A stretch of DNA of 64,000 bases, from NCBI GenBank assembly GCA_949297145.1, contig CASFQO010000008.1, positions 46,766-110,765 of the forward strand. Direction: 5' to 3'. Shown here in pieces: positions 2 to 23,870 of the stretch. The first letter of the stretch is position 1, and each line of letters opens with the position of its first letter. Below the pieces are notes generated by a model. It ran no database searches. It was not told where the DNA came from and saw only the letters and a list, made by a program, of their open reading frames with translations. The translations under genes were made by a program, and so were the position numbers. This stretch comes from an uncultured Alphaproteobacteria bacterium. GTDB taxonomy: Bacteria; Pseudomonadota; Alphaproteobacteria; RF32; CAG-239.

Positions 2-232
2 TTGCCAAATTCTGCAAAAGATAAAAACATAGTAAGCCTTCAAGATGGATTAAAAGAAAGCACAACAGCAAAAGACGATTACTCAATTGGAGCGCAAATT
101 AATTATTACACAACCCAGCAAATATTAAGTATTGTTGATGCGGATGCACAAAATCAACAAACAGAAATCTTAAAAGATCTTGAAACTTTTAACTACAACT
201 ATTTTGGAAAGCAGGCTGAAGGAGAAAGCTAA
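2..232 (+). CDS. C-terminal fragment of a hypothetical protein; no recognizable motif; translationally coupled (TAATG) to the next gene
   Basis: Open frame runs off the window start; stop overlaps the next start codon. Confidence 0.3.
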   Translation: MPNSAKDKNIVSLQDGLKESTTAKDDYSIGAQINYYTTQQILSIVDADAQNQQTEILKDLETFNYNYFGKQAEGES

Positions 233-930: not shown

Positions 931-939
931 GAGGAAATT

Positions 940-2298
940 ATGAAGAAAAAAACAGCAATCATCTGCCTAATAATAGGACTAGCAACAGGAAATGCAAATC
1001 CTGCCAATGCCTTAATTTTGGATGCTCCGACATTAGCTGCCAAAATCAGTGAGTGGGTAGGAAAAATAACCGATGCCACAACAAAAGTGACCCAGCAAGT
1101 ATCACAAGTAAAACAAATGACATCACAGGGCTTTAACAAAGAAGAACTCTTCAGCATAGCAGAAGAATACGCCTCAAGTTATGGAAAAGATTTACTCAAA
1201 ACCAAAATGAAAAAAATAGTGGATGGCACAAAAAAGAAAAACCGAGACAAGATGGAAACAGAAAAAGAAGCCTATGTAGAAGCTCAGAATGCTTACTATG
1301 AAGAAAAAATTGGGATAATGGATGATAGTATAAAAGAAACCGAGAATGCACGCAATGAAGCGCAAACCGCTCGTACACAAAAGCAAGCAGAGGTTGATCA
1401 AAAAAAAAGCTACTATGAAAGCGTCAAAGGAAATCTGTCGAAAGAACCAAAAGCATATGATGAGTATATGAAGGCACAGATGGAATATGACGAATTAGAT
1501 AAGACTTGCCAAGAATTTGATGTTCTGCTGGAAAATTTAGAAATGCAGAGAAGCGTATTGCAAGAAGAAAAAGCCAAAGTAGGGACTTCTGATGATCCTC
1601 AGTATGCATTATATGAAAAACGTCTGGAAGAAATGGATAAAGAAATAGAAGAGGCCGATGGAGAAGGAGGAAAAGAAGAAATTGTTAATAAATCAAGTGG
1701 TAATGAGGCTGAATGGGACGATGAAAACGTTGTGAAAGATTTCTCACCTACCGAGAAAGATTACACAGATTTTCTTGAGAGATATTTCTACAATCCAGAG
1801 GATTTGTCTGCAGCTGGAGGAGATGCGCGAATTGAACACCAAACAAAAATAGATGCTGTCACCAGAGAAAGAAGATTTTTGCTTGTAAACAGTGCGGCAC
1901 ACTTACTACAGGTATCAGCAACATTAAGAAGGGAGATTCCAGTACGTAGTGAAATTATAGATGAGATGTTTCAAAATACTCCTAAATCGACAGGAGAATT
2001 AGAGGCAATATCATCATATTCAGCCACAAGAATAGAAAATATGAAAGCATTGCTTATGTATGCGAAACTTCAAAGTGCAAGATTACAGTATATGTCTGCT
2101 AAACAATTGCTTAGCATAGACGCCATAAAAGTACCAAATGGAAATTATTCTGATTTTAATTTAGAAAAATACATCTTGACCAAAGAAGATGTGGATAAGG
2201 CAATAGAAGAAGCCAACACAGCAAACAGCGGTGTAACTTCTGTTGAAGATAATTATGAAGTAAATGCGGGAGACTACCAATGGTTAACAAACAACTAA
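940..2298 (+). CDS. Secreted coiled-coil protein (signal peptide MKKKTAIICLIIGLATGNANPANA), 452 aa; candidate VirB5/TrbJ-like component; contains an A9 homopolymer at 1400-1408
   Basis: Signal peptide; long E/K-rich heptad-like segments; 9-nt gap from previous gene; 19-nt overlap with next gene. Confidence 0.5.
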   Translation: MKKKTAIICLIIGLATGNANPANALILDAPTLAAKISEWVGKITDATTKVTQQVSQVKQMTSQGFNKEELFSIAEEYASSYGKDLLKTKMKKIVDGTKKKNRDKMETEKEAYVEAQNAYYEEKIGIMDDSIKETENARNEAQTARTQKQAEVDQKKSYYESVKGNLSKEPKAYDEYMKAQMEYDELDKTCQEFDVLLENLEMQRSVLQEEKAKVGTSDDPQYALYEKRLEEMDKEIEEADGEGGKEEIVNKSSGNEAEWDDENVVKDFSPTEKDYTDFLERYFYNPEDLSAAGGDARIEHQTKIDAVTRERRFLLVNSAAHLLQVSATLRREIPVRSEIIDEMFQNTPKSTGELEAISSYSATRIENMKALLMYAKLQSARLQYMSAKQLLSIDAIKVPNGNYSDFNLEKYILTKEDVDKAIEEANTANSGVTSVEDNYEVNAGDYQWLTNN

Positions 2299-7704: not shown

Positions 7705-8463
7705 ATGGTTAATTTAATAAATCAAAAAATACTTCGGATAACAGATAAAGGAAAACCCAAAGAAGCTCCGGCATTTATTACGGAAGATGTCATAGAAGTA
7801 AAACGTGCAAAATTGATTTATTACAAATGGATAAGTAGATTAATGGCGCTACTTGCAACCATCTCTTTGCTATATGGTGTTTGTGCAACATTATCAATAT
7901 TAAAGTTAGCGCCGGAAATAGTAATAGATCCGCAATTATTTGTACGCCTATCCGATTCTGAGTCTTTAGTCAAAAGGGAGAGAGTTGACCGTTGGATGGA
8001 GTCTCGTGAAAAGATGATGGTGAATTTCATGAAACAATATGTAGAGCTCCGAAACACCTACATCAAAGATGAAAAAGAAATGAATAACCGCTGGTTATGG
8101 GGAGGTCTTGTGTCATACCTATCAACCTATCCGGTATATAAAGAATTTGAAAAGGTCTTTCCTAAATTAAAAGAAGAAATGCAAGAAAAGGAAGCAAGTC
8201 GTTCTGTAGAAATTCTCTCAGTTGAGCGAACGGGCGGTGAAAACAGTAATACATGGAAAATAGAGTTTAAGACGTATGATTTTACTTTTAAGCAAAATAG
8301 ATTAAGCCGACGAGCAAGCGTGAAGCCGATTATAGAAGAGAGATTCTGGACTGCGAACATTCGTGGATATGTCGATCCAAACAGAAGAACGGCCTACAGA
8401 CGCCTTTTAAATCCATTAGGATTTGTCGTATACAGTTATTTTCAAAGTGAAATTGAGACTTAA
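7705..8463 (+). CDS. virB8: VirB8-like T4SS inner-membrane protein, paralog 1 (bitopic: N-terminal cytoplasmic tail, one TM, periplasmic NTF2-like domain)
   Basis: Single TM WISRLMALLATISLLYGVCATLSIL; size 252 aa; conserved C-terminal NPLGF-V-Y motif shared with the second copy. Confidence 0.7.
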   Translation: MVNLINQKILRITDKGKPKEAPAFITEDVIEVKRAKLIYYKWISRLMALLATISLLYGVCATLSILKLAPEIVIDPQLFVRLSDSESLVKRERVDRWMESREKMMVNFMKQYVELRNTYIKDEKEMNNRWLWGGLVSYLSTYPVYKEFEKVFPKLKEEMQEKEASRSVEILSVERTGGENSNTWKIEFKTYDFTFKQNRLSRRASVKPIIEERFWTANIRGYVDPNRRTAYRRLLNPLGFVVYSYFQSEIET

Positions 8464-8606: not shown

Positions 8607-8798
8607 ATGTATTATAAAGCTTTAGTAATCGGTTTCGCTGTTCTAATATTGGCTGCATGTAATTTAGTCGGCAGCTATTATGAACCAGAACCTGTTGGTA
8701 TAGGTAAAGATGTATACGAATTGAAACTATCACCATGTGCTTGCATAGAGGTGGAATTACCAAAAACATTGCCGGATTGGTTCAAGGCAATCAGCTAA
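8607..8798 (+). CDS. virB7: Small (63 aa) lipoprotein, VirB7-like candidate, sandwiched between two virB8 paralogs
   Basis: Lipobox L-A-A-C at residues 15-18 (LILAACNL); AGAGGG RBS; size and position match rvhB7 of Rickettsiales. Confidence 0.5.
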   Translation: MYYKALVIGFAVLILAACNLVGSYYEPEPVGIGKDVYELKLSPCACIEVELPKTLPDWFKAIS

Positions 8799-8809: not shown

Positions 8810-9568
8810 ATGGTAGAGCAGCTATCCTCGGAAAATACAAAAAAACTTTTATTGGAAGGGCAAACTGGAGAAAAGCCTCGTCCTAAAATGGCGCGTCCTC
8901 ACAAAAGAGGTTCAGCGGATGTTATTGTCGAAAACGCAACAGAAAAAAGATATTTATGGACTGCCAGAGCTTTTGCTATTATCTTTGCGGTGAGCTTGTG
9001 TTGTAACTTAATCTTAACATACGTTGTATTTGCTATAATGCCACTCTATCGTATAGAGCCGTATTTGTTTAGTTTTGCAGAGAAAAAAGATCAAATCTAT
9101 ACAATCCATCCGGTTAAAAATATTTATGAGTATAAATACTTAACGGAAATCTTTATAAGAGAATATGTTTTATTACGTAATACCTTTGTTAACGACGTTA
9201 ATGAGATGGAACAACGTTGGGGGACAGGAAGCACTATTCAAGAAATGTCATCCCCAGGGGTTTATAGTAAATTTAAAGAGGAATTTGCTGATAAGGCAAT
9301 TGATTTAATTAGAAATCACAATATTACACGCAACATTAAAATCGCCTCAGTAACAGAAGTTGGTGGTAAAAATGGTGAAATGTGGTGGCAGGTAGAGTTT
9401 AGAGTTGAAGATATGATGCCCGAATTTGAAACACCGAGGTTAAGTGTGTGGTTGGCATCTGTCAAAATACAATATAGGGCCAAAAGGGTAACTTTTGGAG
9501 AAAGATTAAAAAATCCATTAGGGTTTACGGTACTTGATTATAAACAAGTAGAGAGAAAAACAAACTGA
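8810..9568 (+). CDS. virB8: VirB8-like T4SS inner-membrane protein, paralog 2
   Basis: TM AFAIIFAVSLCCNLILTYVVFAI; C-terminal motif RLKNPLGFTVLDY parallel to paralog 1. Confidence 0.7.
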   Translation: MVEQLSSENTKKLLLEGQTGEKPRPKMARPHKRGSADVIVENATEKRYLWTARAFAIIFAVSLCCNLILTYVVFAIMPLYRIEPYLFSFAEKKDQIYTIHPVKNIYEYKYLTEIFIREYVLLRNTFVNDVNEMEQRWGTGSTIQEMSSPGVYSKFKEEFADKAIDLIRNHNITRNIKIASVTEVGGKNGEMWWQVEFRVEDMMPEFETPRLSVWLASVKIQYRAKRVTFGERLKNPLGFTVLDYKQVERKTN

Positions 9569-9587: not shown

Positions 9588-11546
9588 ATGATGAAAAAAG
9601 TGAACATATTATCTGTAATGTTGGTATATTTGGGGATGCTAATGGCATCAGCTCAAGCTCAAGTGACAAAAGATAATCTGGATCAAAATGCAGATCAGAG
9701 TCAAGGAAACTATGCCGCAACCAATTTAAATTATTTAGGAGGTGTAGGGTCCTTAGGTATGATGCAAAGTGCATGGAAAGATCCTTTACAGCATATGGGA
9801 GAAGGACAAACTCGTCCAGGTTATACAAAATATTATTGGACACCAGAACTTGTCTTGCCTGTCAGAGTTAGAGAAGGTATGTATACCCTAATAAATTTTC
9901 CAAACTGGGAAGTGATTGAAAATGTCTACATAGGTGATGGACAATCATTTAATGCGGAAATACAAGGTCCATCAAGTTTGATGGTTTATCCTGATTCTTC
10001 GCAGTTTGTTGGTGTAGATACTAATATGATTGTCTTTGGTCGTTCTGGAAATAAATATGTTTTTTATGTTCAAAGTGAAACAGTTAATACAGATAGAATT
10101 ACAAATGCTATAATAGATATTGAAGTTGTGAAAAAAAGACAAAATGTTTCTGGTGCGTCAGCTATGGGGATAGGCACCGGAGGCGGTAATGGGCATATCA
10201 ATGCAAATACTTATGGGCAGAATGGAAGTAGTGTAGATGCAACATTTACAAGAGATTTACAAAAGGAAGACTGGATTGAAAAAATTCCGGTAGACCCGAC
10301 ACAGTTTCGTTTTGATATAGAAGTATATGTTCCCAATCCCGATGACATTGTTATAGCTCCAGAACGTGTTTGGAGAGATAATATTTTCACGTATATTGAT
10401 TTAGGAGATAAAGCGCTGACAGCAAACCAACGACCGATTGTAACTTTAATCGTAGAACGTTCAGAAACACCCGTTGGTTTTAGAACAGCAGGCCCAAATA
10501 ATCGTCTCATTATTGTAGAAGGCATGGGAGATATGGTTTTGCGTAGCGGAAAAAGAATTGTTTGCTTAAAATTAAGGCGCGCAGATTCGGATGGTTTGGA
10601 AAATACAGTTTATGCGAAGACAAATGAGTGGGATTTACAAGCTCAGCGCTACCAAAATCAGTCTTCAAGTACAGGAGAACCTGCTGAAAATTATGAAGAT
10701 GTTTATGGAAAAGAAACATCAGCTGATAATAAAAAAGATTCTTTCTTTGGTATTAATTCATTCTTTGGACCATCAGAAACTGCAACATCCTCGAAAGCAG
10801 AAACAGACAGTGGTATGAGCTATGAAGATATGATCAGTGGAAAACAATCTACGACGCCGCAAAACGAGGTTAAGTCCGAACCAAAAGAAAATAACCAAAA
10901 CAAGGTATCAGAGCCGTCAACTACAGATAAAGAAGCTTTGATAAATTCGATTCCAAAAGCGAAAACATATGTGGCTACACCGAATTCGGCTCCAAGTACG
11001 CCAGAATTGACAGGCCAATATGATGTAAATGCAAATGGAGCAGAATTAGTAACGCCTCAGTATGGTAATAAAAAAGAGGATACCATAACATACCAAAAGG
11101 ATGAACAACAAAGCTTGCAAAATTCTAACGTTGCTCCAAAACTTGGTAATTCTAGCAATAACTCTAGTCCTGTTTTGATTACACCAAAGGATGAAAATTT
11201 GGCCAAACAGAACTCTTTGGTTTCTGCGGAAACAGAAGCTCTCTTGAAAGAATTCAGGGACGGAAAGGTTTTTGAAAATACAGATGAAAGTAATATTTCT
11301 ATAGAATTAGGAACAGATAAAGACGTAAATAATCTGGAAAAATTATGGAATGATATTTCTAAAAATTACTCAGCAACATTGGGTAGATATCAACCATTTT
11401 ATTCTGTAGATACACCGGCAGACGGTCAAGGAAAAGAGGTCTTTCACCTGCGAGTAGGACCTGTAAAATCTCTGGAAGAAGGAGATAATATTTGCAGCCA
11501 ATTAGGGCGTAATGGAATATTTTGTAGTGTGGTTAGAATACAATGA
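9588..11546 (+). CDS. virB9: VirB9-like T4SS outer-membrane core protein, extended by a ~250-aa S/T/N/Q-rich low-complexity linker and a C-terminal SPOR-like peptidoglycan-binding domain
   Basis: Signal peptide MMKKVNILSVMLVYLGMLMASAQA; VirB9/TrbG/CagX-like beta-rich core approx aa 75-330 (…RFDIEVYVPNPDDIVIAPERVW…IVCLKLR); C-terminus …FHLRVGPVKSLEEGDNICSQLGRNGIFCSVVRI matches the SPOR consensus. Confidence 0.75.
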   Translation: MMKKVNILSVMLVYLGMLMASAQAQVTKDNLDQNADQSQGNYAATNLNYLGGVGSLGMMQSAWKDPLQHMGEGQTRPGYTKYYWTPELVLPVRVREGMYTLINFPNWEVIENVYIGDGQSFNAEIQGPSSLMVYPDSSQFVGVDTNMIVFGRSGNKYVFYVQSETVNTDRITNAIIDIEVVKKRQNVSGASAMGIGTGGGNGHINANTYGQNGSSVDATFTRDLQKEDWIEKIPVDPTQFRFDIEVYVPNPDDIVIAPERVWRDNIFTYIDLGDKALTANQRPIVTLIVERSETPVGFRTAGPNNRLIIVEGMGDMVLRSGKRIVCLKLRRADSDGLENTVYAKTNEWDLQAQRYQNQSSSTGEPAENYEDVYGKETSADNKKDSFFGINSFFGPSETATSSKAETDSGMSYEDMISGKQSTTPQNEVKSEPKENNQNKVSEPSTTDKEALINSIPKAKTYVATPNSAPSTPELTGQYDVNANGAELVTPQYGNKKEDTITYQKDEQQSLQNSNVAPKLGNSSNNSSPVLITPKDENLAKQNSLVSAETEALLKEFRDGKVFENTDESNISIELGTDKDVNNLEKLWNDISKNYSATLGRYQPFYSVDTPADGQGKEVFHLRVGPVKSLEEGDNICSQLGRNGIFCSVVRIQ

Positions 11547-14500
11547 GCGAGAATACTCGGTTTGAAGAATATGAGAGAAAAACCCGTAAGATAATTTTCA
11601 TCATAGGAATTATCGCGTTCTTTTTCTTTCTGTTTGGACTATTAGTAATATCATCAGAGACTGAGGTCTACAATCCGGAAGAAGCTACCCCTGACTTTGT
11701 AGAAAATCAAAACATACTACCTGAAATAACAACAGATACAGGGCCTATATTTGTTGACACAGAAGCCACAACAGGAGAAAGTAAAAATAAACCCATAAAA
11801 GTTACACCTGCACAGATAAATATGAATAAATTTATTTTAGGTGTAGATACGCAAAACCAAAGTGTTCTAACAATTGGAACAGATGGTAGTGAAAGTATTC
11901 ATATAGAACGTGTTGAATTGGTGGAAGAAACTGAAGACGGATTTGAATTTCGTGATAAATGCAGAAACAGAGATTTGCGAGGAGATGAAACATGTAACGT
12001 CTTGATCACCTGGGTTCCACATCTTCCGGGTAACGTGCAGAATAATTTTAAAATAATATGGTACGAGACGCGCTTGGATAAATCAAGTGCAAAATCTGAA
12101 GAGGTGAGCATTAAAGGGAGTGCAGTTTATCCTGAGGACAACCAACAAAATTGTCCACCAGGAAGCGGTTGCGCAATTGGCGAAGGAGAAAGTACTGGTG
12201 CACATCGATTAGCAATAGGACCTAATGGAGAAATAATAGGATATATAGACGAAGCAGGAAATGTACACGATAATGAGGGAAATATTATCGGTCGTGTCAA
12301 TGAAGACGGATTGATTGTCGATTCTGACGGCAATATTATTGGTGTAGCCCAAAATATGAAGTTAGCTTATGATAAAGATGGTAATATAATCGGATATGTA
12401 AAAACGGACGGAACAGTTGTTGATCTGCAAGGTGAAGTAATCGGAAAAGCATTACCAGATGGTACGATTGTTAACAGCAAAGGAGAAATCATCGGCAAAG
12501 CTGTTGAAGCAGGATTTGTATATGATAAAAATGGCAAAATTATAGGTCGCGTGCTACCGGATGGAACAGTTGTCGATATAAATGACCCCAAGAAAATCAT
12601 CGGTCGACTAAATGAAAATGGTGAGGTTGTAGACGAAAACGGCAATGTAATAGGCAAAGTTACCTCAGCTGGGAACATCGTTGTAGATGAAAATGGTAAT
12701 GTATTAGGTGTTGTTATGCCAGATAATAGCGTTGTAGACCAAGATGGCAATATTGTTGGCTATGTTGACGAAAATGGCAATGTTTACAAACTTGCAAAGG
12801 AAAAAATCGGCACAAATGGAGAAAGTCGGAAAATCGTGTATGACAAAGATGGTAAAGCCATCGGTTATATCGATGAAAATGGCAAAGTTGTTAAATTTGC
12901 AAAAGATAGCAATAAACCGGAAATAATTGGAAAAGTTGGGGCTAGCCGCCGGTTAGCCTATGATAAGAATGGCAATGTAATCGGCTATGTAGATAAAGAT
13001 GGTACAGTAAAGGATTTTAAGGGAAATACAATAGGCAAAGTCGATAAAGACGGAAATATAATAGATAAAAACGGCAATAAGATAGGCAAGGCCGGGGCTT
13101 TTGGTAAGTTGGCATTGGATAAAAACGGAAAAGTCATAGGGTATATTGATGACCAAGGCCGCGTATTTGACCATAATGGAAAGCATATCGGCAATGTCGA
13201 TAAAAATGGTAACATTGTAAAATTAGCTGAAAATGGCAATAAAGGGGAAGTAATAGGAAAATCTGGAGAAAGTCGCAGATTGGCCTTTGATAAAAATGGT
13301 AACGTTATCGGATACGTAGATAAAGATGGCACGGTAAAAGATTTTAAGGGAAACACAATAGGCAAAGTCGATAAAGATGGAAATATAATAGATAAAAACG
13401 GTAATAAGATAGGAAAAGTGAGCTCATATGGTAGATTAGCACTAGATGAAAATGGAAAAGTCATAGGGTATATTGATGACCAAGGCCGTGTATTTGACCA
13501 TAACGGGAAACAGATCGGTAACGTTGATAAAGATGGAAATATAATAGATAAAAATGGTAATAAAATTGGGAAATCAGGAGAAAGTCGAGAGTTGGCTTAT
13601 GATAAGAATGGCAATGTAATCGGCTATGTAGATAAAGATGGTACAGTAAAAGATTTTAAGGGAAATACAATAGGCAAAGTCGATAAAGACGGAAATATAA
13701 TAGATAAAAACGGCAATAAGATAGGCAAGGCTGGGGCTTTTGGTAAGTTGGCATTGGATAAAAACGGAAAAGTCATAGGGTATATTGATGACCAAGGCCG
13801 CGTATTTGACCATAATGGAAAGCATATCGGCAATGTCGATAAAAATGGTAATATCATTAGCACGCAACAGAAGAATGTAGCTGGAGAAAAAAAGAGGATA
13901 GCCTTAGGGAAAGACGGTAAGCCAATAGGGTATATAGATGATGATGGAAATGTTATAGATTTTGATGGAAATATCATAGGAAAGGTTAATGACAAAGGGG
14001 AAATTATAGGCAAGAATGGGCAAAAAATTGGTACTGCAGGAAATTATGAAACAGTTGCATATGATAAAAATGGCAAAGTAATAGGTTTCGTCGATGATAA
14101 AGGTCGTGTTGTTGGTAAAAATGGCAAATTACTTGGTTATGTTGACGACAAAGGGCAAATTATAGGGACAACAGGCGAGATAATTGGTAAAGTAGGAACA
14201 TCAAGAGAAATAGCCTATGATAACAATGGAAAATTTATCGGCTATGTAGACCAAGATGGCTCTGTGAAAGGCTGTGGTGGAGCAGTAATTGGTAAAAAAG
14301 ATAGTTCTGGAAATGTTATAGATAAAAATGGTAAAATTATCGGCAAAGTAGGTGGAATAAAAGAGTTAGCCTTTAATAATGAAGGAATTTTTATTGGCTA
14401 TATAGATGAAAAAAAACGAGTCATAGATTGTGAAGGCACAGCAATAGGTGTTGTGGATAAAAATGGTAATATTATAGCATCAAGTGGAGAAACGTTAGGA

Positions 14501-17500
14501 ACCGCAGGAACGTTTAAGCGCTTAGCCTATGATAAAAATGGAAAAGTCATTGGTTACGTAACGCCAGATGGTACAGTAAAAGATTTTAAGGGTAACTTGA
14601 TTGGACGTATGACTGAAGATGGAACGATTCTTGATAAAAATGGTCGTGTGATTGGTAAAGCTGGAGATTACAAACAGGTAGCGACAGACAAAAATGGTAA
14701 TGTTATCGGCTATGTGGATGAAAATGGTCGTGTTATAGATGAAAATGGCAAACTGATAGGCTTTATAGACAATGAAGGTAATGTCATTAAAGCAGGAACA
14801 AAGGTAATAGGTAGAACTTGTATTAAAAGAAAAATTATAAAAAACAAAAAGGGAAATATAATCGGATATCTGGATAAAAATAACATTGTAAAAAATTTTA
14901 GCAATAAAGTGCTTGGCACAAATAAAAATGGAGACATTCTAGATAATAAGGAATTGCTAATAGGTACGGTAAGCGAACTCCAAAATGTTGTACAAAAGGA
15001 AGCTGGAAATATCATAGGGTATTTAGATGCAAAAAACTATGTTAGAGGCGATGAAAATAAAATAATAGGAATTGTAGATGTAAAGGGAGACGTTTTAGCT
15101 GCAAAAGAAAATATAATTGGAAAATTAGACACAGATAGAAAAACCCTGAAAGACAATGGTAATAATATTATAGGCTACATGAAAGAGAATAATTTTGCTT
15201 TCAGTACTGATAATAAGCTAATGGGCTATGTAACGGAAGATAATGAAGTGAAAGCCGTTGGAGAAGTGATCTGTACTGCATGCAAAAGTGTCAAGTTGGC
15301 ATATGATGAAAATGGTAATATATTAGGATATATCGATGAAAATGGCAATGTAATAGATGAAAATGGTAAGATTGTCGGCAAGGTAGATGAAAACGGCAAT
15401 GTGATAAATGAAAACGGAAAAATTATCGGAAAAGTCGGAGATGCCCAAAATTTGGCCTATGATAAAGATGGAAAACTTATAGGATTCGTAGATAAGGACG
15501 GAAAAGTAAAAGATTTTAAGGGAAATGTAATAGGATATGTCGATGAAAATGGAAATATTCTTGAGAATACGAATGAAATAATAGGCAGTGTTGGAAAAAA
15601 TGGTAAATTAGCCTATGATAAAAATGGAAAAGTCATTGGTTACGTCGATAAAGATGGTAATGTCCGTGACTTTAAAGGCAATTTAATCGGAAAAGCTACA
15701 AAAGATGGTAAAATAATAGATCAGTATGGCCGTGAAATAGGAAAAGTTGGTGATACTAAAACATTAGCACTGGATAAAAATGGAAATGTAATAGGCTATG
15801 TCGGTGAAGATGGAAAGGTCTACGGTGAAAAAGGAGATTTGATAGGATTTCTGGATAATGACGGTAATGTTGTTGGTTTAACCGATGAAGTACTAGGCAA
15901 AGCCTCTACAAATCGTCAATTAGCACTTGATAAAAATGGAAATGTAATAGGATACATAGATGAAGACGGTACTGTTCGTGATTTTGAAGGAAAGCTGCTA
16001 GGGTATTTAGGCGAAGATGGAAGTATAAACGATATAAATGGCAATATTATTGGAAAAGCGGGCGATTATGCAAAAGTTGTTCTCGATAAGAATGGTAACA
16101 TAATAGGTTACACAGATGAACAAGGAAAAGTAATTGGAAATAATGGAAAAGTCATTGGTTTTGTAGGAGAAGATGGCAATGTTTATGGAAGCAGTGGTGA
16201 AGTTATTGGCCGACTAGCCGAAAAAGGGGAGGGAGATCTCAAGGTAATCAGTAGAAAATCAGTAATGGATGAAAAAGGTAATATAATTGGTTACATAGAT
16301 GAGAATGGTCTGGCTCGAGATTTTGATGGCAACATTCTGGGAACTCTTCAAGAAGATGGAAGCATTAAAGATAGCAAAGGAAATATAATAGGTCGAGCAG
16401 GAGATAATATTGATTTAACAGTAGATGGAAACGGAAAAATTGTTGGTCGAGTAGGTGATTATTCAAATTTAGCAATTGATGATGAAGGGAACGTTATTGG
16501 TTATATTGGTAACGATGGAAAAGTTTATGATGCAAATGGAATTGTCATTGGCTATATAGATGAAAACGGTAATGTCATTAGTACTAGGGGAATAAGAATT
16601 GGAACAGTTGTTAAAAAGGATATGATAGCTATATCACCAGCAGGATACAGTCTGGGGATTATTAACAATCGAGGTGAAGTTACTAACAATAAAGAGGAAG
16701 TTATCGGCAAAATATTACCAAATTCATTAATAAAAGCAACTGAAGGCGATCAAATAATCGGTAAAACAGTTATCGGAGGAATGGCTATAGGCTGGGGCTG
16801 CCAACATTACGGATATGTAGACAGAGATGCAAGAGTGAAAAAAAATGGAAAAGACACCGGATATAAAATGCTATTTGACAGAACAATTGTAGACAAAGAT
16901 GGCAATTATGTTGGAGATATAGCAAAAGTTGGAGCTGTGCGCGATGAAAAGTGTAACATTATTGGAAAAGCTGAATATGACGGTTATGTAAGAAACGATG
17001 CCGGAGATTATGTCGGTTGTGTAAACCCAGATGGAGGTGTGCTTGATCAAGATGGAAAACTTATAGGAAAGGTCTTTGAACCAGGATATGCACTATATTA
17101 TAGCGGAGAAATGATGGGAATAGTCAATCAAAATGGTTCAATAACATCCGGAACACAAGCTATTGGATGTACGAATTTTGATGGAGAAGTATTAAATAAA
17201 GATGGATTTGTCATTGGACAGGTAATGGATAAAACTCAAGCGTTTGATATTGAAGGGAATTTTATTGATAACCTATCAACATTTAAGTATGATAATACGG
17301 AAATCTTGCCTAATACGAAGATATTATTTAATAAATTCATAGTTAATCCGAAATTGGAAATAAAAGGAATTATATTGCCAGAGAGAAATGTTGTCATAAA
17401 TTCGGATGGAGACGTTATAGGACATCTGTTTGCAGATGGGTATATTTATAATCAAAAGGGAATTGCTGTTGATAAAATAGCATATGAAGGAAGAGCTTTT

Positions 17501-18463
17501 TATTCCCAAAAAGCTGGAAAGATTATGGAGCCTGGAAAAGTAGTTGACTTTAACGGTAACTATATAGGATTGGCAAATGCATCAGGTAAAGTAATAGACG
17601 TACTGGGTACAGAATTAGGCCATATAGATGGAAAAGGACGAATGTTTGATAAAGCAGGAGAATATAAAGGAGGACTGGTTAAAACAGGTGTTGGCATAGG
17701 TTATGATGGATCATATCTCGGATATGTAAGTAAAAGCGGCAAAGTTATAGATGTTGACGGAAATGTGAGTGGAAACGTCAGCTCTGAGGGACATATTTTA
17801 GATGCGAATAAACAAATTGTCGGAGAAGTTATAGCAGAAGACCTGACAATAGATATTCAGGGTAAAGTAAGAGGATATGTAAATGCTTTGGGCGATATTA
17901 TAGATGAAGATGGCAACATCATAACAACTATATTGCCAGGAGGCGCATCAAACAAAAATTATAATGTAATAAAAAGAGGGGTTGTGCTAACTTATTCAGG
18001 AAATGTTTTAGGACAAGTTGTTGCTGATGGAACAGTAATTTCGACAAACAATACTAAGATTGGTCACATATTAAATTCAGGACAAGCTGTTAATGATAAG
18101 GGGGTATTAATAGGAGAAATTGCAGAAGGCGACATCGTAATTGATGAAAAAGATCAAGTTGTAGGCTTCATAAATGCAGAAGGAAAAGTACTGGATAAAA
18201 ATAAGACGGTAATAGGAAAAACCATATCCTCAAATTTAATTGTAGATAACAATGGAAAAATATTGGGATATAGTTATAAAATAGGTGCTAATATACTAGG
18301 AAATGACGGAAAGTTTTTGGGAAGGCTGTCCTCAGATGGGACGATATTCAGCCTGACAAATGGAAAAATTGGATATTTAAAGAGCAACGGCTCATATGTA
18401 AATATTCGAAATCAAGTTTCCGGATATGTATTAGATGAAGTAGCGCAAAACCGGAGGAACTGA
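11543..18463 (+). CDS. Giant (2306 aa) membrane-anchored repeat protein. It has an N-terminal VirB10-like topology (short cytoplasmic tail, one TM, then a periplasmic region). The rest of the protein is an array of >200 copies of a ~10-residue D-x-(D/N)-G-x-(V/I)-I-G-x-V module (about 20-aa double units).
   Basis: TM IIFIIGIIAFFFFLFGLLVISS at aa 17-38; ATGA overlap with virB9 stop; repeat array from about nt 12218 to the end; near-identical DNA-level tandem repeats. Confidence 0.8.
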   Translation: MSENTRFEEYERKTRKIIFIIGIIAFFFFLFGLLVISSETEVYNPEEATPDFVENQNILPEITTDTGPIFVDTEATTGESKNKPIKVTPAQINMNKFILGVDTQNQSVLTIGTDGSESIHIERVELVEETEDGFEFRDKCRNRDLRGDETCNVLITWVPHLPGNVQNNFKIIWYETRLDKSSAKSEEVSIKGSAVYPEDNQQNCPPGSGCAIGEGESTGAHRLAIGPNGEIIGYIDEAGNVHDNEGNIIGRVNEDGLIVDSDGNIIGVAQNMKLAYDKDGNIIGYVKTDGTVVDLQGEVIGKALPDGTIVNSKGEIIGKAVEAGFVYDKNGKIIGRVLPDGTVVDINDPKKIIGRLNENGEVVDENGNVIGKVTSAGNIVVDENGNVLGVVMPDNSVVDQDGNIVGYVDENGNVYKLAKEKIGTNGESRKIVYDKDGKAIGYIDENGKVVKFAKDSNKPEIIGKVGASRRLAYDKNGNVIGYVDKDGTVKDFKGNTIGKVDKDGNIIDKNGNKIGKAGAFGKLALDKNGKVIGYIDDQGRVFDHNGKHIGNVDKNGNIVKLAENGNKGEVIGKSGESRRLAFDKNGNVIGYVDKDGTVKDFKGNTIGKVDKDGNIIDKNGNKIGKVSSYGRLALDENGKVIGYIDDQGRVFDHNGKQIGNVDKDGNIIDKNGNKIGKSGESRELAYDKNGNVIGYVDKDGTVKDFKGNTIGKVDKDGNIIDKNGNKIGKAGAFGKLALDKNGKVIGYIDDQGRVFDHNGKHIGNVDKNGNIISTQQKNVAGEKKRIALGKDGKPIGYIDDDGNVIDFDGNIIGKVNDKGEIIGKNGQKIGTAGNYETVAYDKNGKVIGFVDDKGRVVGKNGKLLGYVDDKGQIIGTTGEIIGKVGTSREIAYDNNGKFIGYVDQDGSVKGCGGAVIGKKDSSGNVIDKNGKIIGKVGGIKELAFNNEGIFIGYIDEKKRVIDCEGTAIGVVDKNGNIIASSGETLGTAGTFKRLAYDKNGKVIGYVTPDGTVKDFKGNLIGRMTEDGTILDKNGRVIGKAGDYKQVATDKNGNVIGYVDENGRVIDENGKLIGFIDNEGNVIKAGTKVIGRTCIKRKIIKNKKGNIIGYLDKNNIVKNFSNKVLGTNKNGDILDNKELLIGTVSELQNVVQKEAGNIIGYLDAKNYVRGDENKIIGIVDVKGDVLAAKENIIGKLDTDRKTLKDNGNNIIGYMKENNFAFSTDNKLMGYVTEDNEVKAVGEVICTACKSVKLAYDENGNILGYIDENGNVIDENGKIVGKVDENGNVINENGKIIGKVGDAQNLAYDKDGKLIGFVDKDGKVKDFKGNVIGYVDENGNILENTNEIIGSVGKNGKLAYDKNGKVIGYVDKDGNVRDFKGNLIGKATKDGKIIDQYGREIGKVGDTKTLALDKNGNVIGYVGEDGKVYGEKGDLIGFLDNDGNVVGLTDEVLGKASTNRQLALDKNGNVIGYIDEDGTVRDFEGKLLGYLGEDGSINDINGNIIGKAGDYAKVVLDKNGNIIGYTDEQGKVIGNNGKVIGFVGEDGNVYGSSGEVIGRLAEKGEGDLKVISRKSVMDEKGNIIGYIDENGLARDFDGNILGTLQEDGSIKDSKGNIIGRAGDNIDLTVDGNGKIVGRVGDYSNLAIDDEGNVIGYIGNDGKVYDANGIVIGYIDENGNVISTRGIRIGTVVKKDMIAISPAGYSLGIINNRGEVTNNKEEVIGKILPNSLIKATEGDQIIGKTVIGGMAIGWGCQHYGYVDRDARVKKNGKDTGYKMLFDRTIVDKDGNYVGDIAKVGAVRDEKCNIIGKAEYDGYVRNDAGDYVGCVNPDGGVLDQDGKLIGKVFEPGYALYYSGEMMGIVNQNGSITSGTQAIGCTNFDGEVLNKDGFVIGQVMDKTQAFDIEGNFIDNLSTFKYDNTEILPNTKILFNKFIVNPKLEIKGIILPERNVVINSDGDVIGHLFADGYIYNQKGIAVDKIAYEGRAFYSQKAGKIMEPGKVVDFNGNYIGLANASGKVIDVLGTELGHIDGKGRMFDKAGEYKGGLVKTGVGIGYDGSYLGYVSKSGKVIDVDGNVSGNVSSEGHILDANKQIVGEVIAEDLTIDIQGKVRGYVNALGDIIDEDGNIITTILPGGASNKNYNVIKRGVVLTYSGNVLGQVVADGTVISTNNTKIGHILNSGQAVNDKGVLIGEIAEGDIVIDEKDQVVGFINAEGKVLDKNKTVIGKTISSNLIVDNNGKILGYSYKIGANILGNDGKFLGRLSSDGTIFSLTNGKIGYLKSNGSYVNIRNQVSGYVLDEVAQNRRN

Positions 18464-18464
18464 G

Positions 18465-21400
18465 TTGCGAAAAAAAATATTAAATTTTATCCATATTCTT
18501 GAACTGGTGGTAGTCTGTATTGCCTTCAGTGTGAAGGCTATGGCTGCAGATATTAGTGCACTCAATTTTAATGGAGATTTAATAGGAAAAGTAATTCCTG
18601 ACGGTTCCGTAATAAATAGTGATAATGAGCTTATTGGGTATATGACTGCAGATGGGTTTATTTTTGATAATGATAATAATTTAATTGGAGGCATTGTACC
18701 GCAGGGTATAGCTATTTCATACAACAATAATATTTTAGGAAAAATCAACAATGATGGATCAGTTACGTCGCTAAACGATAGTCTAATTGGAAAGGTCTTA
18801 CCAAATGGCTTAGTCGTTAATGATAATTATGATATTTTAGGAGCCGCCGTTTCACCAAATTTAGTGTATAATGATGGTGGACAAGTTGTTGGACGAGTAT
18901 CAGGCGATGGTAAGTTTTATAATTTATCTGGAGAAAATACCGGATTTGTAACTGCAACAGGATTCGTCTATTCATCTAATGATAACGGAACAGAAAAAAA
19001 AATTAGCCTTATAGGAAAATTAATTACATCAAAGATGGTAATATCGTCAGGTGGAAAATATTTAGGCAGCATAGCTCCGGATGGAAAAGTACTAGATTTA
19101 AGGAAAAATATCATAGGGAATATTCATGCCAATGGTTTTGTATATAACAAAGAAGGGCAGGCAATAGGTCATGTTGTTGATAACGGGTATGCGTTTAATA
19201 ACAACGGACAATACATAGGGGTCGTAAGCTATAACGGTGAGGTTATAAATAAAGGAACAGTAGTTGCCCATGCCATAAATGGTAACAGAGTCATAAATAA
19301 AGAAGGAAATACAATTGGCTTTACAGTCAATATGGCTGCTACAGCAAATACATTAGATGGCAAGTATCTGGGGCGTATTACGGCAGAAGGAAAAATACTT
19401 GATAAAAGAAATATTATAGGAAGCATAGGTGCCTCTGGAAAAGTAGTTAATGAACAAGGTGCTGTTATCGGTATGGTCAATCCGGTAGGTCCTGTATTTG
19501 ATTATTTAGGAAATTTACGAGCAAATGCCGCCATAGGAGGTAAAATTGTTTCATTAGAAGGAATAGAACAGGGAACAGTTCGTCAAAATGAAGCAATAGA
19601 TAATAATGGAAACATTATTGGTAAAACGATAGATAATAATTTATGCTTTAACAGTAATAATGAATTTTTAGGAATAAGCGGTATAGGAACGTATCTAAAG
19701 GCAAATGGGCAGACATATAAAATCTCGCCTTACGGGTATGTCTTTAATGAAAATGGAGAATTAAGCGGTATCAATATTAAGCAAGGTGGTGTATACACAG
19801 AAGATGGAGCAACACTATCATATACATCAAATGAAGGAAAAACCGAAAATACTTCATTAAATGAAATAGCTAAATTTACAGGAGCCGGAATTTTTCTTGA
19901 TAAAAATAATAAGCTATTAGGAAAGATGATAGAAAACAAGTATATCACGAATTTTGAAGGCGAAATGCAAGGTGTCATCAATGCAGGCAATTTGGTTGTA
20001 AATAATAAAAATAAGATTTTTGCAAAAATATTACCAAATAATAATGTTGTTGGCATATCAGAGCGTATTGCCCAAAATTATGGAAGAGCCGGAACTGCAC
20101 CGATTAGCATAAGTATAAATGGGGATTACCTTGGTGCAAACAGTGTGACAGGGCAAATAACAAAAGGCTCCGAAATTGTAGGGAAAATAAGCTCAGATGG
20201 TTACGCTATAGATAATATGGGGGCATTATACGGAAAAACATTAAATATGGGAGCCGTAATCTCGCCAGAATGTAAAGTACTAGGAGTAGTCTCAGATAAG
20301 GGCGAAGCAAGAACATCTAAAGGAGCATATCTGGGGATGATACTAGCCAATAGGCAAGTTGTAGATGAGACAGAAAATGTGATAGGCTATGTTGTTGAAT
20401 CCCAACCGATAAACGGTAAAAATGGAGAAAGTATCGGTGTGGCTAATACATCTGGTAATGTTCTCAATTATAATAATCAAAATTTGGGATGTTTAGACAA
20501 TACCGGTAAAGTAAAAAATTCTCAGCAAGAAATAATTGGACAGGTGATTCCGTATATGTCTATTATGGGATATGACAATAAAATTATCGGATATACGAAT
20601 TTTTATGGAAATGTCATAGATAATTCGGGAATACAAATAGCAACTATAGATTTAGATGAAAGCGTATTATCTAAAACAGGAGAAAATATTGGTGTTCCGT
20701 TTCAATATACAGTAGCTTTTGATGCAAATAACATTTATTTAGGGCGAGTTAAGCCTGATGGAAATGTTGTGTCAGATGGTGGAGAAATTTTAGGTACAGT
20801 CTTATACACAGGAGAAGTAAAAACAACAAAAGGCGAAAATGGTTATGCCCTATATGATTTATATGTTTATGATAATGATGGAAAGACAATAGGCTATATA
20901 GCCAAGAATGGCCGCGTTTACAGTATTATGGGTGAATTAAAAGGTGCTATCTCCCAAGGATTTGTCTTAGATAAAAAACAAAATTTAATAGGTAGAGGAT
21001 TGAGAGATTATAATATAAGAAACAAAGATAATCAAATTATTGGATATTTGAAATTAGATGGAAGCGTTGTTGATATTAAGAATATTGAGATCGGAAAAAT
21101 TGATGAAAAAGGAAATGTCATAACCCTCTCGGGTCAAAACATTGCACAGGCTGGAAAGTTGCAATATTATCACCGTCCAGCTGAACCAATGACAGAAGAA
21201 AAGGTTTCGCAACAAGATACAAAAGAAACTAAACAGAATGAAAATATCGATACAATAAGAGATACAAAAAATACAGAAGAAGCAGAAGAAACAGAAGAAA
21301 TAGAAGAAGCAGAAAATCTAGAGGGTACAAAACGAGAACCCCAGGAAGATGTTGAAGCTTTATCTCCGGAGGAAGCCGCAGCAGCGGAAGTCAAAGACAA

Positions 21401-22820
21401 ATATCGAGTTATAGGCATTGCTGTAACACCAGGTGGACGCTATATTGGAGATGTATACAGCAATAATCAAGTAATAGATGAATCAGGAACTGTTATAGGT
21501 AGCACAAATGCTAATGGTGAGATTTTAGATAAGGAAGGTAACAAAGTAGGGACTTTTGAAAAAAACAAAGAAACCTCCAATCAAGGAATAAAAACAAAAT
21601 GGTGGGAACAAGTCGCGACCGGAGAAACAATTAGCCCCTACAGTAGCGGCAATGAAATAACTAATGTTGGCCCTGGAGGCGGTATTGGCCCTGGAGGAAG
21701 ATATAATCCAAGGCGTGCAGCAATATTATCCCAATTGCAAGATGAAAGACGGAGAACCATGGTCGCCGCGAAAATTGAGCCGGGATACGATGCTGCATCC
21801 TATACAGGTTGGCAAGATGACTGGGGAATTAATCGTTCCGTATCGACATTAAGGGTTAATATGGATAATATGATTACGGGAGATAAACCAATTCCGGCTG
21901 TTTTAGCAAGGTCCTTAATATCTCTTGGTTCTGCTCCGGTAACAGCAATTGTTGAAAGAAATATATATGGTGATTCAGGGCGTAACGTTATTATTCCTGC
22001 CGGTAGCAGAATTATAGGAGGTTTACAAACAACAGACGCAGAATCAAGATTTGACAGTACGAGTGGCGGTGTCAAATTAGAAATATCATGGGAAAGAATT
22101 ATACGTCCGGATGGAATAGCATTCTTGCTATCGGCTGGGAGGACACAAACAGGTGATGCACAAGGTCGCGGTGGTGGTGCGTTAGGTTATGTGGATGAGC
22201 AATTAGTAAAAAAATACACATTGCCGATTGTTGGTACAATGGTAACATCAGCCATAACATACATGATGGCAGTGGATGAAGAAAGCACGGGAGAAGTAGA
22301 AACCTCTAAACAGCAAGCTGCATCAGATGCACGTCAACAATTTATGGAAAAGATGGATGAAATTTTGCAAGAAATTATAGATAGTAAATCACAGATAGAG
22401 CCTGTTACCTATGTTCCGGCTGGCACAAGGGTTATCATTTATCCAATGCAAGATTTGTGGCTAAGAAGTACAAAAGATATTCAAAAAGGAATAATAACGA
22501 ATGTTCCAGGTGGCGGAGAAGGCGGACTTGTAAATGAAACGTTCTACGATGGAGGTGGAACAACCAGCACATCAACAGTTCAGAGTAACAACTCAAAGAA
22601 TAGCCAAAAGGTGATTTTGGGCAATCAGGCACAAACAAATAACACCAATAATAATGGTGGTGGCGGTACACCTCTTATGGAAGATACTTCTCAAAACAAC
22701 ACGCAGCAGCAACCTCATAGAAACATAGGAGCAATACCACCTCCAGCAGCTGATGGAACCATAACAGAAGCTCCAGAAAGCGAAGAGGATTTATCTGGAG
22801 AGGTGGAATTAATATACTAA
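18465..22820 (+). CDS. virB10: Giant (1451 aa) VirB10/TrbI-family protein: Sec signal peptide, ~870 aa of the same D-x-D/N-G hairpin repeats, an acidic E-rich linker, a VirB10 C-terminal beta-barrel domain (approx nt 21735-22575), and a G/N/T/Q-rich tail
   Basis: TTG start 6 nt after a GGAGGA RBS; h-region ILNFIHILELVVVCIAFSV with VKA-MAA cleavage motif; C-terminal …IPAGSRIIGGLQ…ISWERIIRPDGIAF…ALGYVDEQL…VPAGTRVIIYP… matches VirB10/TrbI CTD. Confidence 0.8.
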   Translation: MRKKILNFIHILELVVVCIAFSVKAMAADISALNFNGDLIGKVIPDGSVINSDNELIGYMTADGFIFDNDNNLIGGIVPQGIAISYNNNILGKINNDGSVTSLNDSLIGKVLPNGLVVNDNYDILGAAVSPNLVYNDGGQVVGRVSGDGKFYNLSGENTGFVTATGFVYSSNDNGTEKKISLIGKLITSKMVISSGGKYLGSIAPDGKVLDLRKNIIGNIHANGFVYNKEGQAIGHVVDNGYAFNNNGQYIGVVSYNGEVINKGTVVAHAINGNRVINKEGNTIGFTVNMAATANTLDGKYLGRITAEGKILDKRNIIGSIGASGKVVNEQGAVIGMVNPVGPVFDYLGNLRANAAIGGKIVSLEGIEQGTVRQNEAIDNNGNIIGKTIDNNLCFNSNNEFLGISGIGTYLKANGQTYKISPYGYVFNENGELSGINIKQGGVYTEDGATLSYTSNEGKTENTSLNEIAKFTGAGIFLDKNNKLLGKMIENKYITNFEGEMQGVINAGNLVVNNKNKIFAKILPNNNVVGISERIAQNYGRAGTAPISISINGDYLGANSVTGQITKGSEIVGKISSDGYAIDNMGALYGKTLNMGAVISPECKVLGVVSDKGEARTSKGAYLGMILANRQVVDETENVIGYVVESQPINGKNGESIGVANTSGNVLNYNNQNLGCLDNTGKVKNSQQEIIGQVIPYMSIMGYDNKIIGYTNFYGNVIDNSGIQIATIDLDESVLSKTGENIGVPFQYTVAFDANNIYLGRVKPDGNVVSDGGEILGTVLYTGEVKTTKGENGYALYDLYVYDNDGKTIGYIAKNGRVYSIMGELKGAISQGFVLDKKQNLIGRGLRDYNIRNKDNQIIGYLKLDGSVVDIKNIEIGKIDEKGNVITLSGQNIAQAGKLQYYHRPAEPMTEEKVSQQDTKETKQNENIDTIRDTKNTEEAEETEEIEEAENLEGTKREPQEDVEALSPEEAAAAEVKDKYRVIGIAVTPGGRYIGDVYSNNQVIDESGTVIGSTNANGEILDKEGNKVGTFEKNKETSNQGIKTKWWEQVATGETISPYSSGNEITNVGPGGGIGPGGRYNPRRAAILSQLQDERRRTMVAAKIEPGYDAASYTGWQDDWGINRSVSTLRVNMDNMITGDKPIPAVLARSLISLGSAPVTAIVERNIYGDSGRNVIIPAGSRIIGGLQTTDAESRFDSTSGGVKLEISWERIIRPDGIAFLLSAGRTQTGDAQGRGGGALGYVDEQLVKKYTLPIVGTMVTSAITYMMAVDEESTGEVETSKQQAASDARQQFMEKMDEILQEIIDSKSQIEPVTYVPAGTRVIIYPMQDLWLRSTKDIQKGIITNVPGGGEGGLVNETFYDGGGTTSTSTVQSNNSKNSQKVILGNQAQTNNTNNNGGGGTPLMEDTSQNNTQQQPHRNIGAIPPPAADGTITEAPESEEDLSGEVELIY

Positions 22821-22889: not shown

Positions 22890-23870
22890 ATGGGAAAGCT
22901 TGAGGATGAAGTTCTTTGCTCTGTATTAAGACCATTATCATATTGGTATGATCAGGAGAATATAGAAGAAGTCGCTATAAATCATCCTGGCGATATATGG
23001 CTGCGCTTGCGCGGCAAAAGAGCCTTTCCATGGGTGAACTATAAGGATCCTAAATTAACCAGAGAATATTTGACAAATTTACTGCATATAATAGCAAATT
23101 TAAATGATCAAGAGTTTGATCCGATAAATGGTTCACCGGTTGTTTACGCCAGAATTCCTGGAGGACATCGTTTTACAGGTATCGCCGGAAAAAATATTGA
23201 GTATGATTTAGATGATGCCGCGACTGGAGGAATAGCGATAGCGATACGTTTGCATTCGGATGATGTAGCATTTGGCTTTGGAGATTATGGCTTGGAGCAG
23301 GGGAAAAAATTAAAAGAGATTAATCCCTTAAAGCATATCAAAGATCCTGATGATGCGTATGAAAGGTTGCTGCTGGCATTACGCCGTGGAGACCATATCC
23401 TAGTGAGTGGTGGTACAGGAACTGGTAAAACGACATTATTAAACAACTTGCTAAAACTTCTGGATATACATAAAAGAGTAATAACGGTGGAGGATACGCG
23501 AGAACTTAATGTGCCGCAACCAAATCATGTACATATTGTTTTATCGCGTACAGAGCAGACGAATACGATGGATTATTCCAAAGTAATTGACTTGATTGTA
23601 CGTTTTACTCCAGATGCAATCATCGGCGGAGAAATTTCTACAAGTAATGCGGGAGCAATTTGGGAATTGATGGGATCAGGACACGATAACTGCCTAGCCA
23701 CAATACACGCAGAGAGCTCGACCGCCGCCTATGAAGCATTTGTAAAACGTATTATGAGAACACAGCCGAACATAGATGTTGAAAAAACGATAGAAGAGAT
23801 GCGTCGCAAACTTCACGTTGTGCAAATCGTAAGAGACGGCAATATTCGTGGAATTACAGAAATAACTTAA
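22890..23870 (+). CDS. virB11: VirB11 T4SS traffic ATPase
   Basis: Walker A VSGGTGTGKTT; 326 aa; VirB11/CpaF-like N- and C-terminal domains. Confidence 0.88.
   Translation: MGKLEDEVLCSVLRPLSYWYDQENIEEVAINHPGDIWLRLRGKRAFPWVNYKDPKLTREYLTNLLHIIANLNDQEFDPINGSPVVYARIPGGHRFTGIAGKNIEYDLDDAATGGIAIAIRLHSDDVAFGFGDYGLEQGKKLKEINPLKHIKDPDDAYERLLLALRRGDHILVSGGTGTGKTTLLNNLLKLLDIHKRVITVEDTRELNVPQPNHVHIVLSRTEQTNTMDYSKVIDLIVRFTPDAIIGGEISTSNAGAIWELMGSGHDNCLATIHAESSTAAYEAFVKRIMRTQPNIDVEKTIEEMRRKLHVVQIVRDGNIRGITEIT

Follow-up and report, generated by a model that had tools for sequence, protein, structure and literature searches.

The gene and its domains

The window analysed here (64,000 nucleotides (nt) of contig CASFQO010000008.1, assembly GCA_949297145.1, from an uncultured gut alphaproteobacterium) carries a type IV secretion system (T4SS) operon. 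One of its genes, at 9588-11546 on the + strand and here called virB9-SPOR, encodes a VirB9 homologue of 652 amino acids (aa) whose C-terminal tail is a SPOR-family domain, as judged from its profile score, its predicted fold and the nearest solved structures. The open reading frame (ORF) and the C-terminal peptides quoted by the initial annotation of this DNA are present exactly as described there. An AGGA ribosome-binding site (RBS) lies about 8 nt 5' of the ATG, and the TGA stop shares an ATGA overlap with the ATG of the next gene, which encodes a 2306-aa repeat protein. These two features indicate that virB9-SPOR is a genuine member of an operon, as opposed to an artefact of read-through. 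Artefacts of frameshift, gene fusion or assembly were also considered and rejected, since the same architecture recurs in hundreds of independent assemblies. The features of the gene and of its neighbours are collected in Table 1.

The sequence of the signal peptide varies among homologues, with a hydrophobic core followed by A-x-A always kept in the alignment. The normal VirB9 core that the initial annotation had placed at about aa 75-330 is recovered by the Pfam profile PF03524 (53.3 bits, E = 4e-14, gathering cut-off 34.2 bits), and positions 4-195 of the 198 in this hidden Markov model (HMM) are covered. The NCBIfam equivalog model for P-type VirB9, TIGR02781, gives 29.5 bits, below its trusted cut-off of 217.7, which marks the query as a divergent VirB9 that is no equivalog of the one from Agrobacterium. 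The two conserved halves of the core are split by a Gly/Ser/Asn-rich insertion, whose mean column identity is 0.48 against 0.93-0.95 for its flanks. The S/T/N/Q/P-rich spacer of the initial annotation corresponds to a low-complexity linker rich in S, N, T, E, K, Q, A and P, in which 19% of the residues are hydrophobic as against 36% in the VirB9 core. The length of this linker ranges from 127 to 247 aa among 23 homologues, neither of the AlphaFold2 (AF2) models predicts any secondary structure in it, and its otherwise hypervariable sequence contains short conserved islands (EDVYG, FFxxNxF, LPK, LTGQYD, PxYNN and NNSSPVLI). It is followed by a short conserved helix (SAETEALLKEFR), which spans residues 20-30 of the model of the tail and aa 547-557 in the full-length AF2 model. 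The islands and the helix are possible docking or processing sites.

The initial annotation had proposed that the protein ends in a SPOR-like domain, to be checked by a PF05036 search and by structure prediction, and both of these analyses agree with the proposal. On the whole protein, the Pfam SPOR profile PF05036 matches aa 578-650 with 21.2 bits, the gathering cut-off being 21 bits, and on the isolated tail it reaches 25.5-26.8 bits (E = 7e-6 to 2e-5); FtsN, used as a positive control, scores 68 bits. The profile is matched by 40 of the 41 family tails (E <= 0.01, best 1.7e-7), which match essentially no other family. When the tail alone was used to search for homologues, all that came back were short fragments from the C-termini of members of this family, and these supplied the alignment for structure prediction. 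The resulting AF2 model of aa 528-652 has a predicted local distance difference test score (pLDDT) of 90-96 over the domain. It shows strands at model residues 43-50, 75-81, 91-97 and 120-123 and helices at 53-71 and 102-113, that is, a beta-alpha-beta-beta-alpha-beta order. The predicted topology is that of the ribonucleoprotein (RNP)-like SPOR fold, in which a four-stranded antiparallel sheet is backed by two helices. The full-length AF2 model is poor (mean pLDDT 40.8) and was used only for the agreement of its C-terminal secondary structure.

When the model of the tail was compared by Foldseek with 350,542 PDB chains, the first four ranks were all occupied by SPOR domains (probabilities 0.99-1.00). 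The first is Pseudomonas aeruginosa RlpA with bound denuded glycan (6i09), with a target template modelling score (TM-score) of 0.77 and a root-mean-square deviation (rmsd) of 2.4 A. It is followed by Bacillus subtilis CwlC (1x60) and apo RlpA (6i05), and these first three ranks span target TM-scores of 0.71-0.77 and aligned rmsd of 2.4-2.8 A. The fourth, Escherichia coli DedD (6ztg), has a target TM-score of only 0.26 and an rmsd of 5.9 A. The ranks below are taken by generic ferredoxin-like folds. SPOR proteins typically have the layout seen here, with the folded domain placed after a disordered linker of low complexity (PMC6895207).

Table 1 Features of the virB9-SPOR gene and of the surrounding T4SS operon (positions in the window)
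Feature	Position	Strand	Basis
virB8 copy 1 (252 aa)	7705..8463	+	PF04335, E 7.5e-13
63-aa lipoprotein ORF, lipobox ILAAC	8607..8798	+	ORF list; 62-63 aa gene also in relative loci L001, L042
virB8 copy 2 (252 aa)	8810..9568	+	PF04335, E 3e-17
virB9-SPOR gene, 652 aa + stop	9588..11546	+	ORF list; RBS; ATGA overlap; Pfam CagX + SPOR
Sec-type signal peptide, aa 1-25, MMKKVNILSVMLVYLGMLMASAQAQ, without lipobox Cys	9588..9662	+	Sequence reading; predicted cleavage
VirB9/CagX core, aa 80-327	9825..10568	+	PF03524
Variable Gly/Ser/Asn-rich insertion inside VirB9 core, aa 182-219	10131..10244	+	Alignment A1; column identity 0.48
Low-complexity, presumably disordered linker, aa 351-545	10638..11222	+	Column identity 0.41; composition; AF2
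Conserved short helix ahead of SPOR domain, aa 546-560, SAETEALLKEFRDGK	11223..11267	+	AF2; column identity 0.80
SPOR-fold domain (predicted), aa 568-652, beta-alpha-beta-beta-alpha-beta	11289..11543	+	PF05036; AF2; Foldseek
Glu573 codon, position of hallmark SPOR glutamine (Pfam HMM position 8)	11304..11306	+	HMM coordinates; MAFFT
His620-Leu621-Arg622 on beta3, aligns with SPOR basic patch	11445..11453	+	MAFFT
Cys636 (alpha2) and Cys646 (beta4), candidate structural disulfide	11493..11525	+	Conservation
2306-aa beta-flower repeat protein, translationally coupled to virB9	11543..18463	+	PF21785, PF21784, DUF3659; ATGA overlap
virB10, 1451 aa, beta-flower repeats N-terminal to TrbI domain	18465..22820	+	PF03743 aa 1137-1333; PF21785; NCBIfam VirB10/ComB10
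virB11 ATPase	22890..23870	+	PF00437; TIGR02788, E 6e-47

Distribution and genomic context

A homologue search detected 1,883 homologues, and each of the best 120 covers the full length (578-697 aa, with 60-99% identity). In a 23-sequence alignment, the mean column identity is 0.93-0.95 in the VirB9 core, 0.91 in the SPOR tail and 0.41 in the linker, so the tail is as constrained as the core and the linker behaves like a spacer. When one genome was scanned for each species, 39 of them turned out to carry the gene. All 39 belong to uncultured gut or rumen Alphaproteobacteria (among others "Acetobacter sp. CAG:977", "Acetobacter sp. 46_36", UMGS1453 and RUG10829), a lineage which we take to be RF32 in GTDB. 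Searched exhaustively with HMMER, a set of 1.84 billion cluster representatives gave 502 matches. A local HMM of the tail finds it in the nearer cluster representatives, and a similar two-cysteine pattern stands at the end of many VirB9 proteins (400-630 aa) that are more distantly related. The profile of 15 such divergent tails aligns with that of the gut-clade tails over 82 columns (hhalign probability 96.6%, E = 5e-10), and at the level of profile comparison both groups are homologous. Four of the 15 match the SPOR HMM, below threshold. Among the top 150 representatives, 97 are full length and the tail is present in 45 of these.

The tail is not peculiar to this window. The possibility that the architecture is unique to this genome was rejected, since it is widespread in a subclade of VirB9 that includes RefSeq plasmids of cultured Sphingomonadales and Hyphomicrobiales. 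Three tail-bearing examples, all RefSeq-annotated and located on megaplasmids of cultured bacteria, come from Sphingosinicella sp. BN140058 (p1, WP_129392748.1, 430 aa), Erythrobacter aureus (WP_115418090.1, 432 aa) and Microvirga sp. VF16 (pMVF16-3, WP_203447098.1, 550 aa). They are flanked by ordinary virB8-virB9-virB10 neighbours, with virB11 and virD4 next at the Sphingosinicella locus, the only one viewed further downstream, and all are named only "TrbG/VirB9 family". The VirB9 gene of Magnetospirillum pMSR-1 is annotated as 1,029 nt (342 aa), too short for such a tail.

In the window, the genes of the operon follow each other on the same strand in the order virB8, lipoprotein, virB8, virB9-SPOR, repeat protein, virB10, virB11, and the virB8/virB9/virB10/virB11 order is also found in four relative loci (L001, L042, L043 and L044). 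Family membership and synteny suggest that the product of virB9-SPOR is the VirB9 subunit of the outer-membrane core complex in a chromosomal secretion system of the VirB type (type IVA). The 63-aa lipoprotein ORF would be VirB7-like, given its size, lipobox and position. The arrangement of two virB8 paralogues flanking this ORF is conserved in L001 and L042, and the duplicated VirB8 is reminiscent of the vir-homologue systems of Rickettsiales. VirB2-6 and VirD4 of the system were not identified within the window, and no lytic transglycosylase domain was found among the locus proteins scanned. Upstream, three co-oriented ORFs (232, 452 and 1801 aa; 232-7685) have no informative Pfam or NCBIfam match, the 1801-aa ORF having only a far-sub-threshold SMC match, and BLASTP detects no similarity between them and the genes in VirB5 and VirB6 position of L043. 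Downstream, the operon adjoins core genes at 23878-32679 (an engB-like GTPase gene, yidC, gpsA, recF, dnaN and dnaA), and mfd, recG and dnaX complete the series of housekeeping genes after it. Since the adjoining genes are core chromosomal and origin-associated ones, the T4SS is chromosomal and not on a mobile element, and the proximity of dnaA, dnaN and recF suggests that the locus lies near the replication origin.

The 2306-aa protein encoded between virB9 and virB10 consists almost entirely of beta-flower/DUF3659 repeats (27 and 22 matched stretches). It is unusual for a virB operon to contain giant repeat proteins, and the relative loci L043 and L044, which have an ordinary-sized VirB10, are devoid of them. 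In L001, which belongs to a 99%-identical strain (ERZ16268241 scaffold_459, 11956-18601), the gene is called as two (509 and 1679 aa), and the orthologue in L042 has 2516 aa. These differences in length suggest variation in repeat number, assembly collapse or a frameshift within the repeats. The GC skew is strongly positive at 12001-20000 (0.29-0.43, against about 0.1-0.2 elsewhere) and coincides with the beta-flower genes; it is presumably a codon-composition effect of the Gly/Lys/Asp/Asn-rich repeats and not a replication signal.

Ligand face and possible role of the tail

In the structure of RlpA, the SPOR domain touches the glycan mostly through backbone atoms of beta1 and a basic patch. 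The sole highly conserved side chain in contact is that of a beta1 Gln at HMM position 8 (Q270 in RlpA, Q251 in FtsN, Q351 in DamX), which hydrogen-bonds the lactyl carboxylate of N-acetylmuramic acid (MurNAc) and the N-acetyl group of N-acetylglucosamine (GlcNAc). Position 12 is preferentially a Phe that stacks on the glycan (PMC6895207). The alignment of the profile of the tail with the single FtsN SPOR sequence by hhalign is not significant (probability 2%), and the mapping of residues consequently rests on the Pfam HMM coordinates of the query tail and of the FtsN control (its sequence verified against 1UTA), together with a MAFFT alignment with FtsN and CwlC. In the latter, the register of the motifs (x-G-x at beta1, R-V-G-P at beta3) agrees with both proteins.

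The basic patch of SPOR domains lies on the beta2-beta3 face and comprises R302, R309 and R311 in RlpA, R309 being equivalent to FtsN R285 (PMC6895207). In the VirB9 tail, H620 shares a MAFFT column with FtsN R285, R622 lies two residues further on and K616 is in the preceding loop. All three are invariant in alignment A1, and most divergent tails have R-L-R at the H620-R622 site. By equivalence with the R309-x-R311 pair, R622 would occupy the position of RlpA R311, and the basic patch thus appears to be retained in the tail. The two cysteines, Cys636 and Cys646, are invariant in alignments A1 and A2. Together with one beta1 Gly, they are the only invariant residues in the alignment of the 15 divergent tails (A3), being kept even in tails of 10-35% identity, and they probably form a disulfide.

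We favor, with moderate confidence, the interpretation that the tail contacts the peptidoglycan sacculus, for anchoring of the machine and/or spatial restriction of its assembly. This role in wall contact is extrapolated from the known activity of SPOR domains and from two comparable modules, DotK and the AMIN domains of PilQ. After Sec export, the VirB9 core would join VirB10 and the small lipoprotein in the outer-membrane ring, as is established for the family. Each subunit of this ring would trail a disordered linker of 127-247 aa ending in a SPOR-fold domain with a candidate disulfide. The VirB9 ring has about 14 copies in characterized systems (PMC12857230), and a ring of about 14 such subunits would form a multivalent skirt of flexible tethers reaching the sacculus. 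These tethers might anchor the machine and/or restrict the site of its assembly, for instance to the amidase-processed wall at division sites and new poles.

Several observations weigh against this interpretation. The tail is missing from roughly half of the related VirB9 representatives, which makes it dispensable for T4SS function as such. On the structural side, the Foldseek E-values are modest (about 1e-3), ferredoxin-like folds are widespread, and alpha/beta folds of a generic kind come close behind, many of them at E of about 1e-2. Searches of the tail against solved SPOR structures with phmmer (single sequence) and hmmsearch (41-sequence profile) found no sequence match in the PDB at E <= 10, although such a failure is expected from plain sequence searches, since SPOR domains share less than 20% identity among themselves (PMC6895207). 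The main reservation comes from the residues of the ligand face. Both the HMM coordinates and the MAFFT alignment place Glu573 where SPOR domains have their hallmark Gln, and Asp577, invariant in alignment A1, where they have the Phe of position 12, so that the beta1 motif reads E-L-G-T-D instead of Q-x-G-x-F. In FtsN, the change Q251E is reported to reduce binding to denuded glycan and septal localization (bioRxiv 10.1101/2024.05.13.594014). The initial annotation had spoken of a peptidoglycan-anchored VirB9. Its SPOR fold stands, but the anchoring was overstated, and Glu573 and Asp577 had been missed. Anchoring is plausible, with a specificity that may depart from that of known SPOR domains.

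Glu is found at the 573 position in 119 of 120 close homologues. In an alignment of 55 tails, made up of the query, 51 cluster representatives and the three plasmid examples, the column contains Glu in 26, Asp in 14 and Gln in one. At position 12, G-P-Y/F is found in some of the distant VirB9 tails. That an acidic residue is conserved on the ligand face points to a binding that is maintained, and possibly altered, instead of to decay. With Gln replaced by Glu and the beta3 basic patch apparently kept, the ligand would perhaps not be the canonical denuded glycan; alternatively, the affinity could be deliberately low and offset by multivalency. It is conceivable, if unlikely, that the VirB9 tails make up a distinct SPOR subfamily in which the acidic residue, next to the apparently retained basic patch, re-tunes binding to another chemotype of the wall, such as a glycan whose de-N-acetylated glucosamine (GlcN) or muramic acid (MurN) bears a free amine, or some other modified strand. 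Were this true, the chemistry of the sacculus would decide at which sites a type IVA machine is assembled and kept in place, which would make the tail a built-in counterpart of the DotK/peptidoglycan-deacetylase control of Legionella.

Three other explanations may be contemplated. The first one is that the tail behaves as a canonical SPOR domain: like FtsN and RlpA, it would bind denuded (that is, stem-peptide-free) glycan and recruit newly exported VirB9 to the septum, which would leave the T4SS at the new poles. The match to the profile and to the fold is in line with this explanation, as is the fact that most glycan contacts of SPOR domains involve the beta1 backbone and the basic patch (PMC6895207), the latter being apparently kept as H620/R622. 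A comparable mechanism has moreover been demonstrated for the AMIN domains of PilQ (PMC5285504), and a mid-cell-to-pole placement has been reported for Dot/Icm (PMC10266036). Nevertheless, 40 of the 55 aligned tails have Glu or Asp at HMM position 8 and only one has Gln, the activity that Q251E reportedly weakens in FtsN is exactly the one towards denuded glycan, and the lactyl carboxylate of MurNAc should be repelled by a carboxylate placed opposite to it. A fully canonical activity is rather doubtful.

The second explanation is that the tail is a protein-protein module that does not bind peptidoglycan. It could dock the beta-flower proteins, the N-terminal region of VirB10 or VirB8, or else regulate or plug the periplasmic chamber. 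The loss of both the hallmark Gln and the aromatic residue of position 12 would be easily understood in that case, as would the high conservation of surface positions, acidic ones included. The conserved upstream helix (aa 546-560) could be the docking element, and the translational coupling of virB9 to the gene of the 2306-aa repeat protein would be congruent with a partnership. Yet, the tail is also present in L043 and L044, where giant beta-flower proteins are lacking and VirB10 has an ordinary size, so a partner specific to the gut clade cannot explain it. Furthermore, the basic patch appears to be kept. Such a module is unlikely. Finally, the resemblance to SPOR could be convergent or marginal and the tail an unrelated small ferredoxin-like domain, as the near-threshold Pfam scores, the mostly sub-threshold divergent tails, the absence of phmmer and hmmsearch matches to solved SPOR structures and the modest Foldseek E-values would allow, but this is very improbable considering that SPOR domains fill ranks 1-4 of 350,542 PDB chains, that 40 of 41 independent family members match the SPOR HMM and essentially nothing else, and that the beta1 x-G-x and beta3 R-V-G-P register agrees with FtsN and CwlC.

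Novelty and comparison with known systems

VirB9, SPOR and the principle of a wall-binding module on a trans-envelope machine are already known, the latter from the precedents of DotK and of the PilQ AMIN domains. In contrast, the VirB9-SPOR combination and the Gln-to-Glu subfamily appear to be undescribed. A full-text search, whose coverage excludes subscription journals, found no paper with both "VirB9" and "SPOR domain", which is in agreement with the statement of the initial annotation that it knew of no description of such a feature for VirB9 homologues. Full-text searches combining SPOR domain with T4SS, or type IV secretion with SPOR and peptidoglycan, returned nothing relevant, and no peptidoglycan-binding extension of VirB9 was found in the same literature. 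T4SS reviews present VirB9 as a two-domain ring subunit only, and a comprehensive one from 2025 does not mention SPOR (PMC12857230). The two Pfam labels (PF03524 and PF05036) are already found together on a few database entries.

Little is understood of the way in which type IVA machines for secretion and conjugation are positioned in the cell wall and fixed to it. A conserved domain of wall-binding type on the VirB9 of many alphaproteobacterial systems, including those on plasmids of culturable Sphingomonadales, provides a handle on the anchoring and localization of T4SS. The natural Gln-to-Glu variant also provides a way to ask what sets the ligand specificity of SPOR domains. Current annotation, in which all the examples are "TrbG/VirB9", misses the tail, and this can be corrected.

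The tail shares with FtsN, DedD, DamX and RlpA (PF05036; 1UTA, 6ZTG, 6I05/6I09), and with CwlC (1X60), a predicted fold of about 75 residues and a profile score above the cut-off. As in other SPOR proteins, the domain would be periplasmic, it ends a long low-complexity linker that is presumably disordered, and it appears to have a pair of basic residues on beta3. The cysteines likely form a stabilizing disulfide as in FtsN, but the pair would link alpha2 and beta4 in the VirB9 tails, whereas that of FtsN lies in beta1 and in the alpha2-beta4 loop. Unlike known SPOR domains, which are carried by inner-membrane anchors, lytic transglycosylases or amidases, this one is borne by a protein of the outer-membrane secretion ring. 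Its hallmark Gln is replaced by Glu (Asp in many relatives) and the Phe of position 12 by Asp.

The signal peptide, the PF03524 core and the virB8-virB9-virB10-virB11 gene order are shared with canonical VirB9/TraO/TrbG proteins, such as VirB9 of A. tumefaciens and TraO of pKM101. Canonical VirB9 proteins end soon after their C-terminal domain, at about 270-300 aa. The query, on the contrary, runs on for some 300 further residues, and its core is divergent and contains a variable Gly-rich insertion.

The closest parallels come from two other trans-envelope machines. In the type IVB Dot/Icm system of Legionella, DotK is an OmpA-like peptidoglycan binder which is needed for polar placement and is modulated by the deacetylation of GlcNAc (PMC10266036). 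Both DotK and the VirB9 tail would thus bring a module of peptidoglycan-binding type to the outer-membrane complex of a T4SS, binding by the latter being a prediction. DotK is nevertheless a separate lipoprotein whose OmpA-like domain reads the stem peptide, whereas the VirB9 tail is a predicted SPOR fold fused to the ring subunit of a type IVA system. The AMIN domains of PilQ bind the septal wall; they bring the whole machine of the type IVa pilus to the poles and to the sites of future division, and anchor it (PMC5285504). In PilQ, as in the protein described here, the domain of wall-binding type is carried by the outer-membrane channel subunit itself. The two differ in that the PilQ module has the AMIN fold, is N-terminal, is devoid of a long linker and belongs to a secretin, whereas the SPOR-fold tail is attached through its linker to a subunit of the VirB7/9/10 ring.

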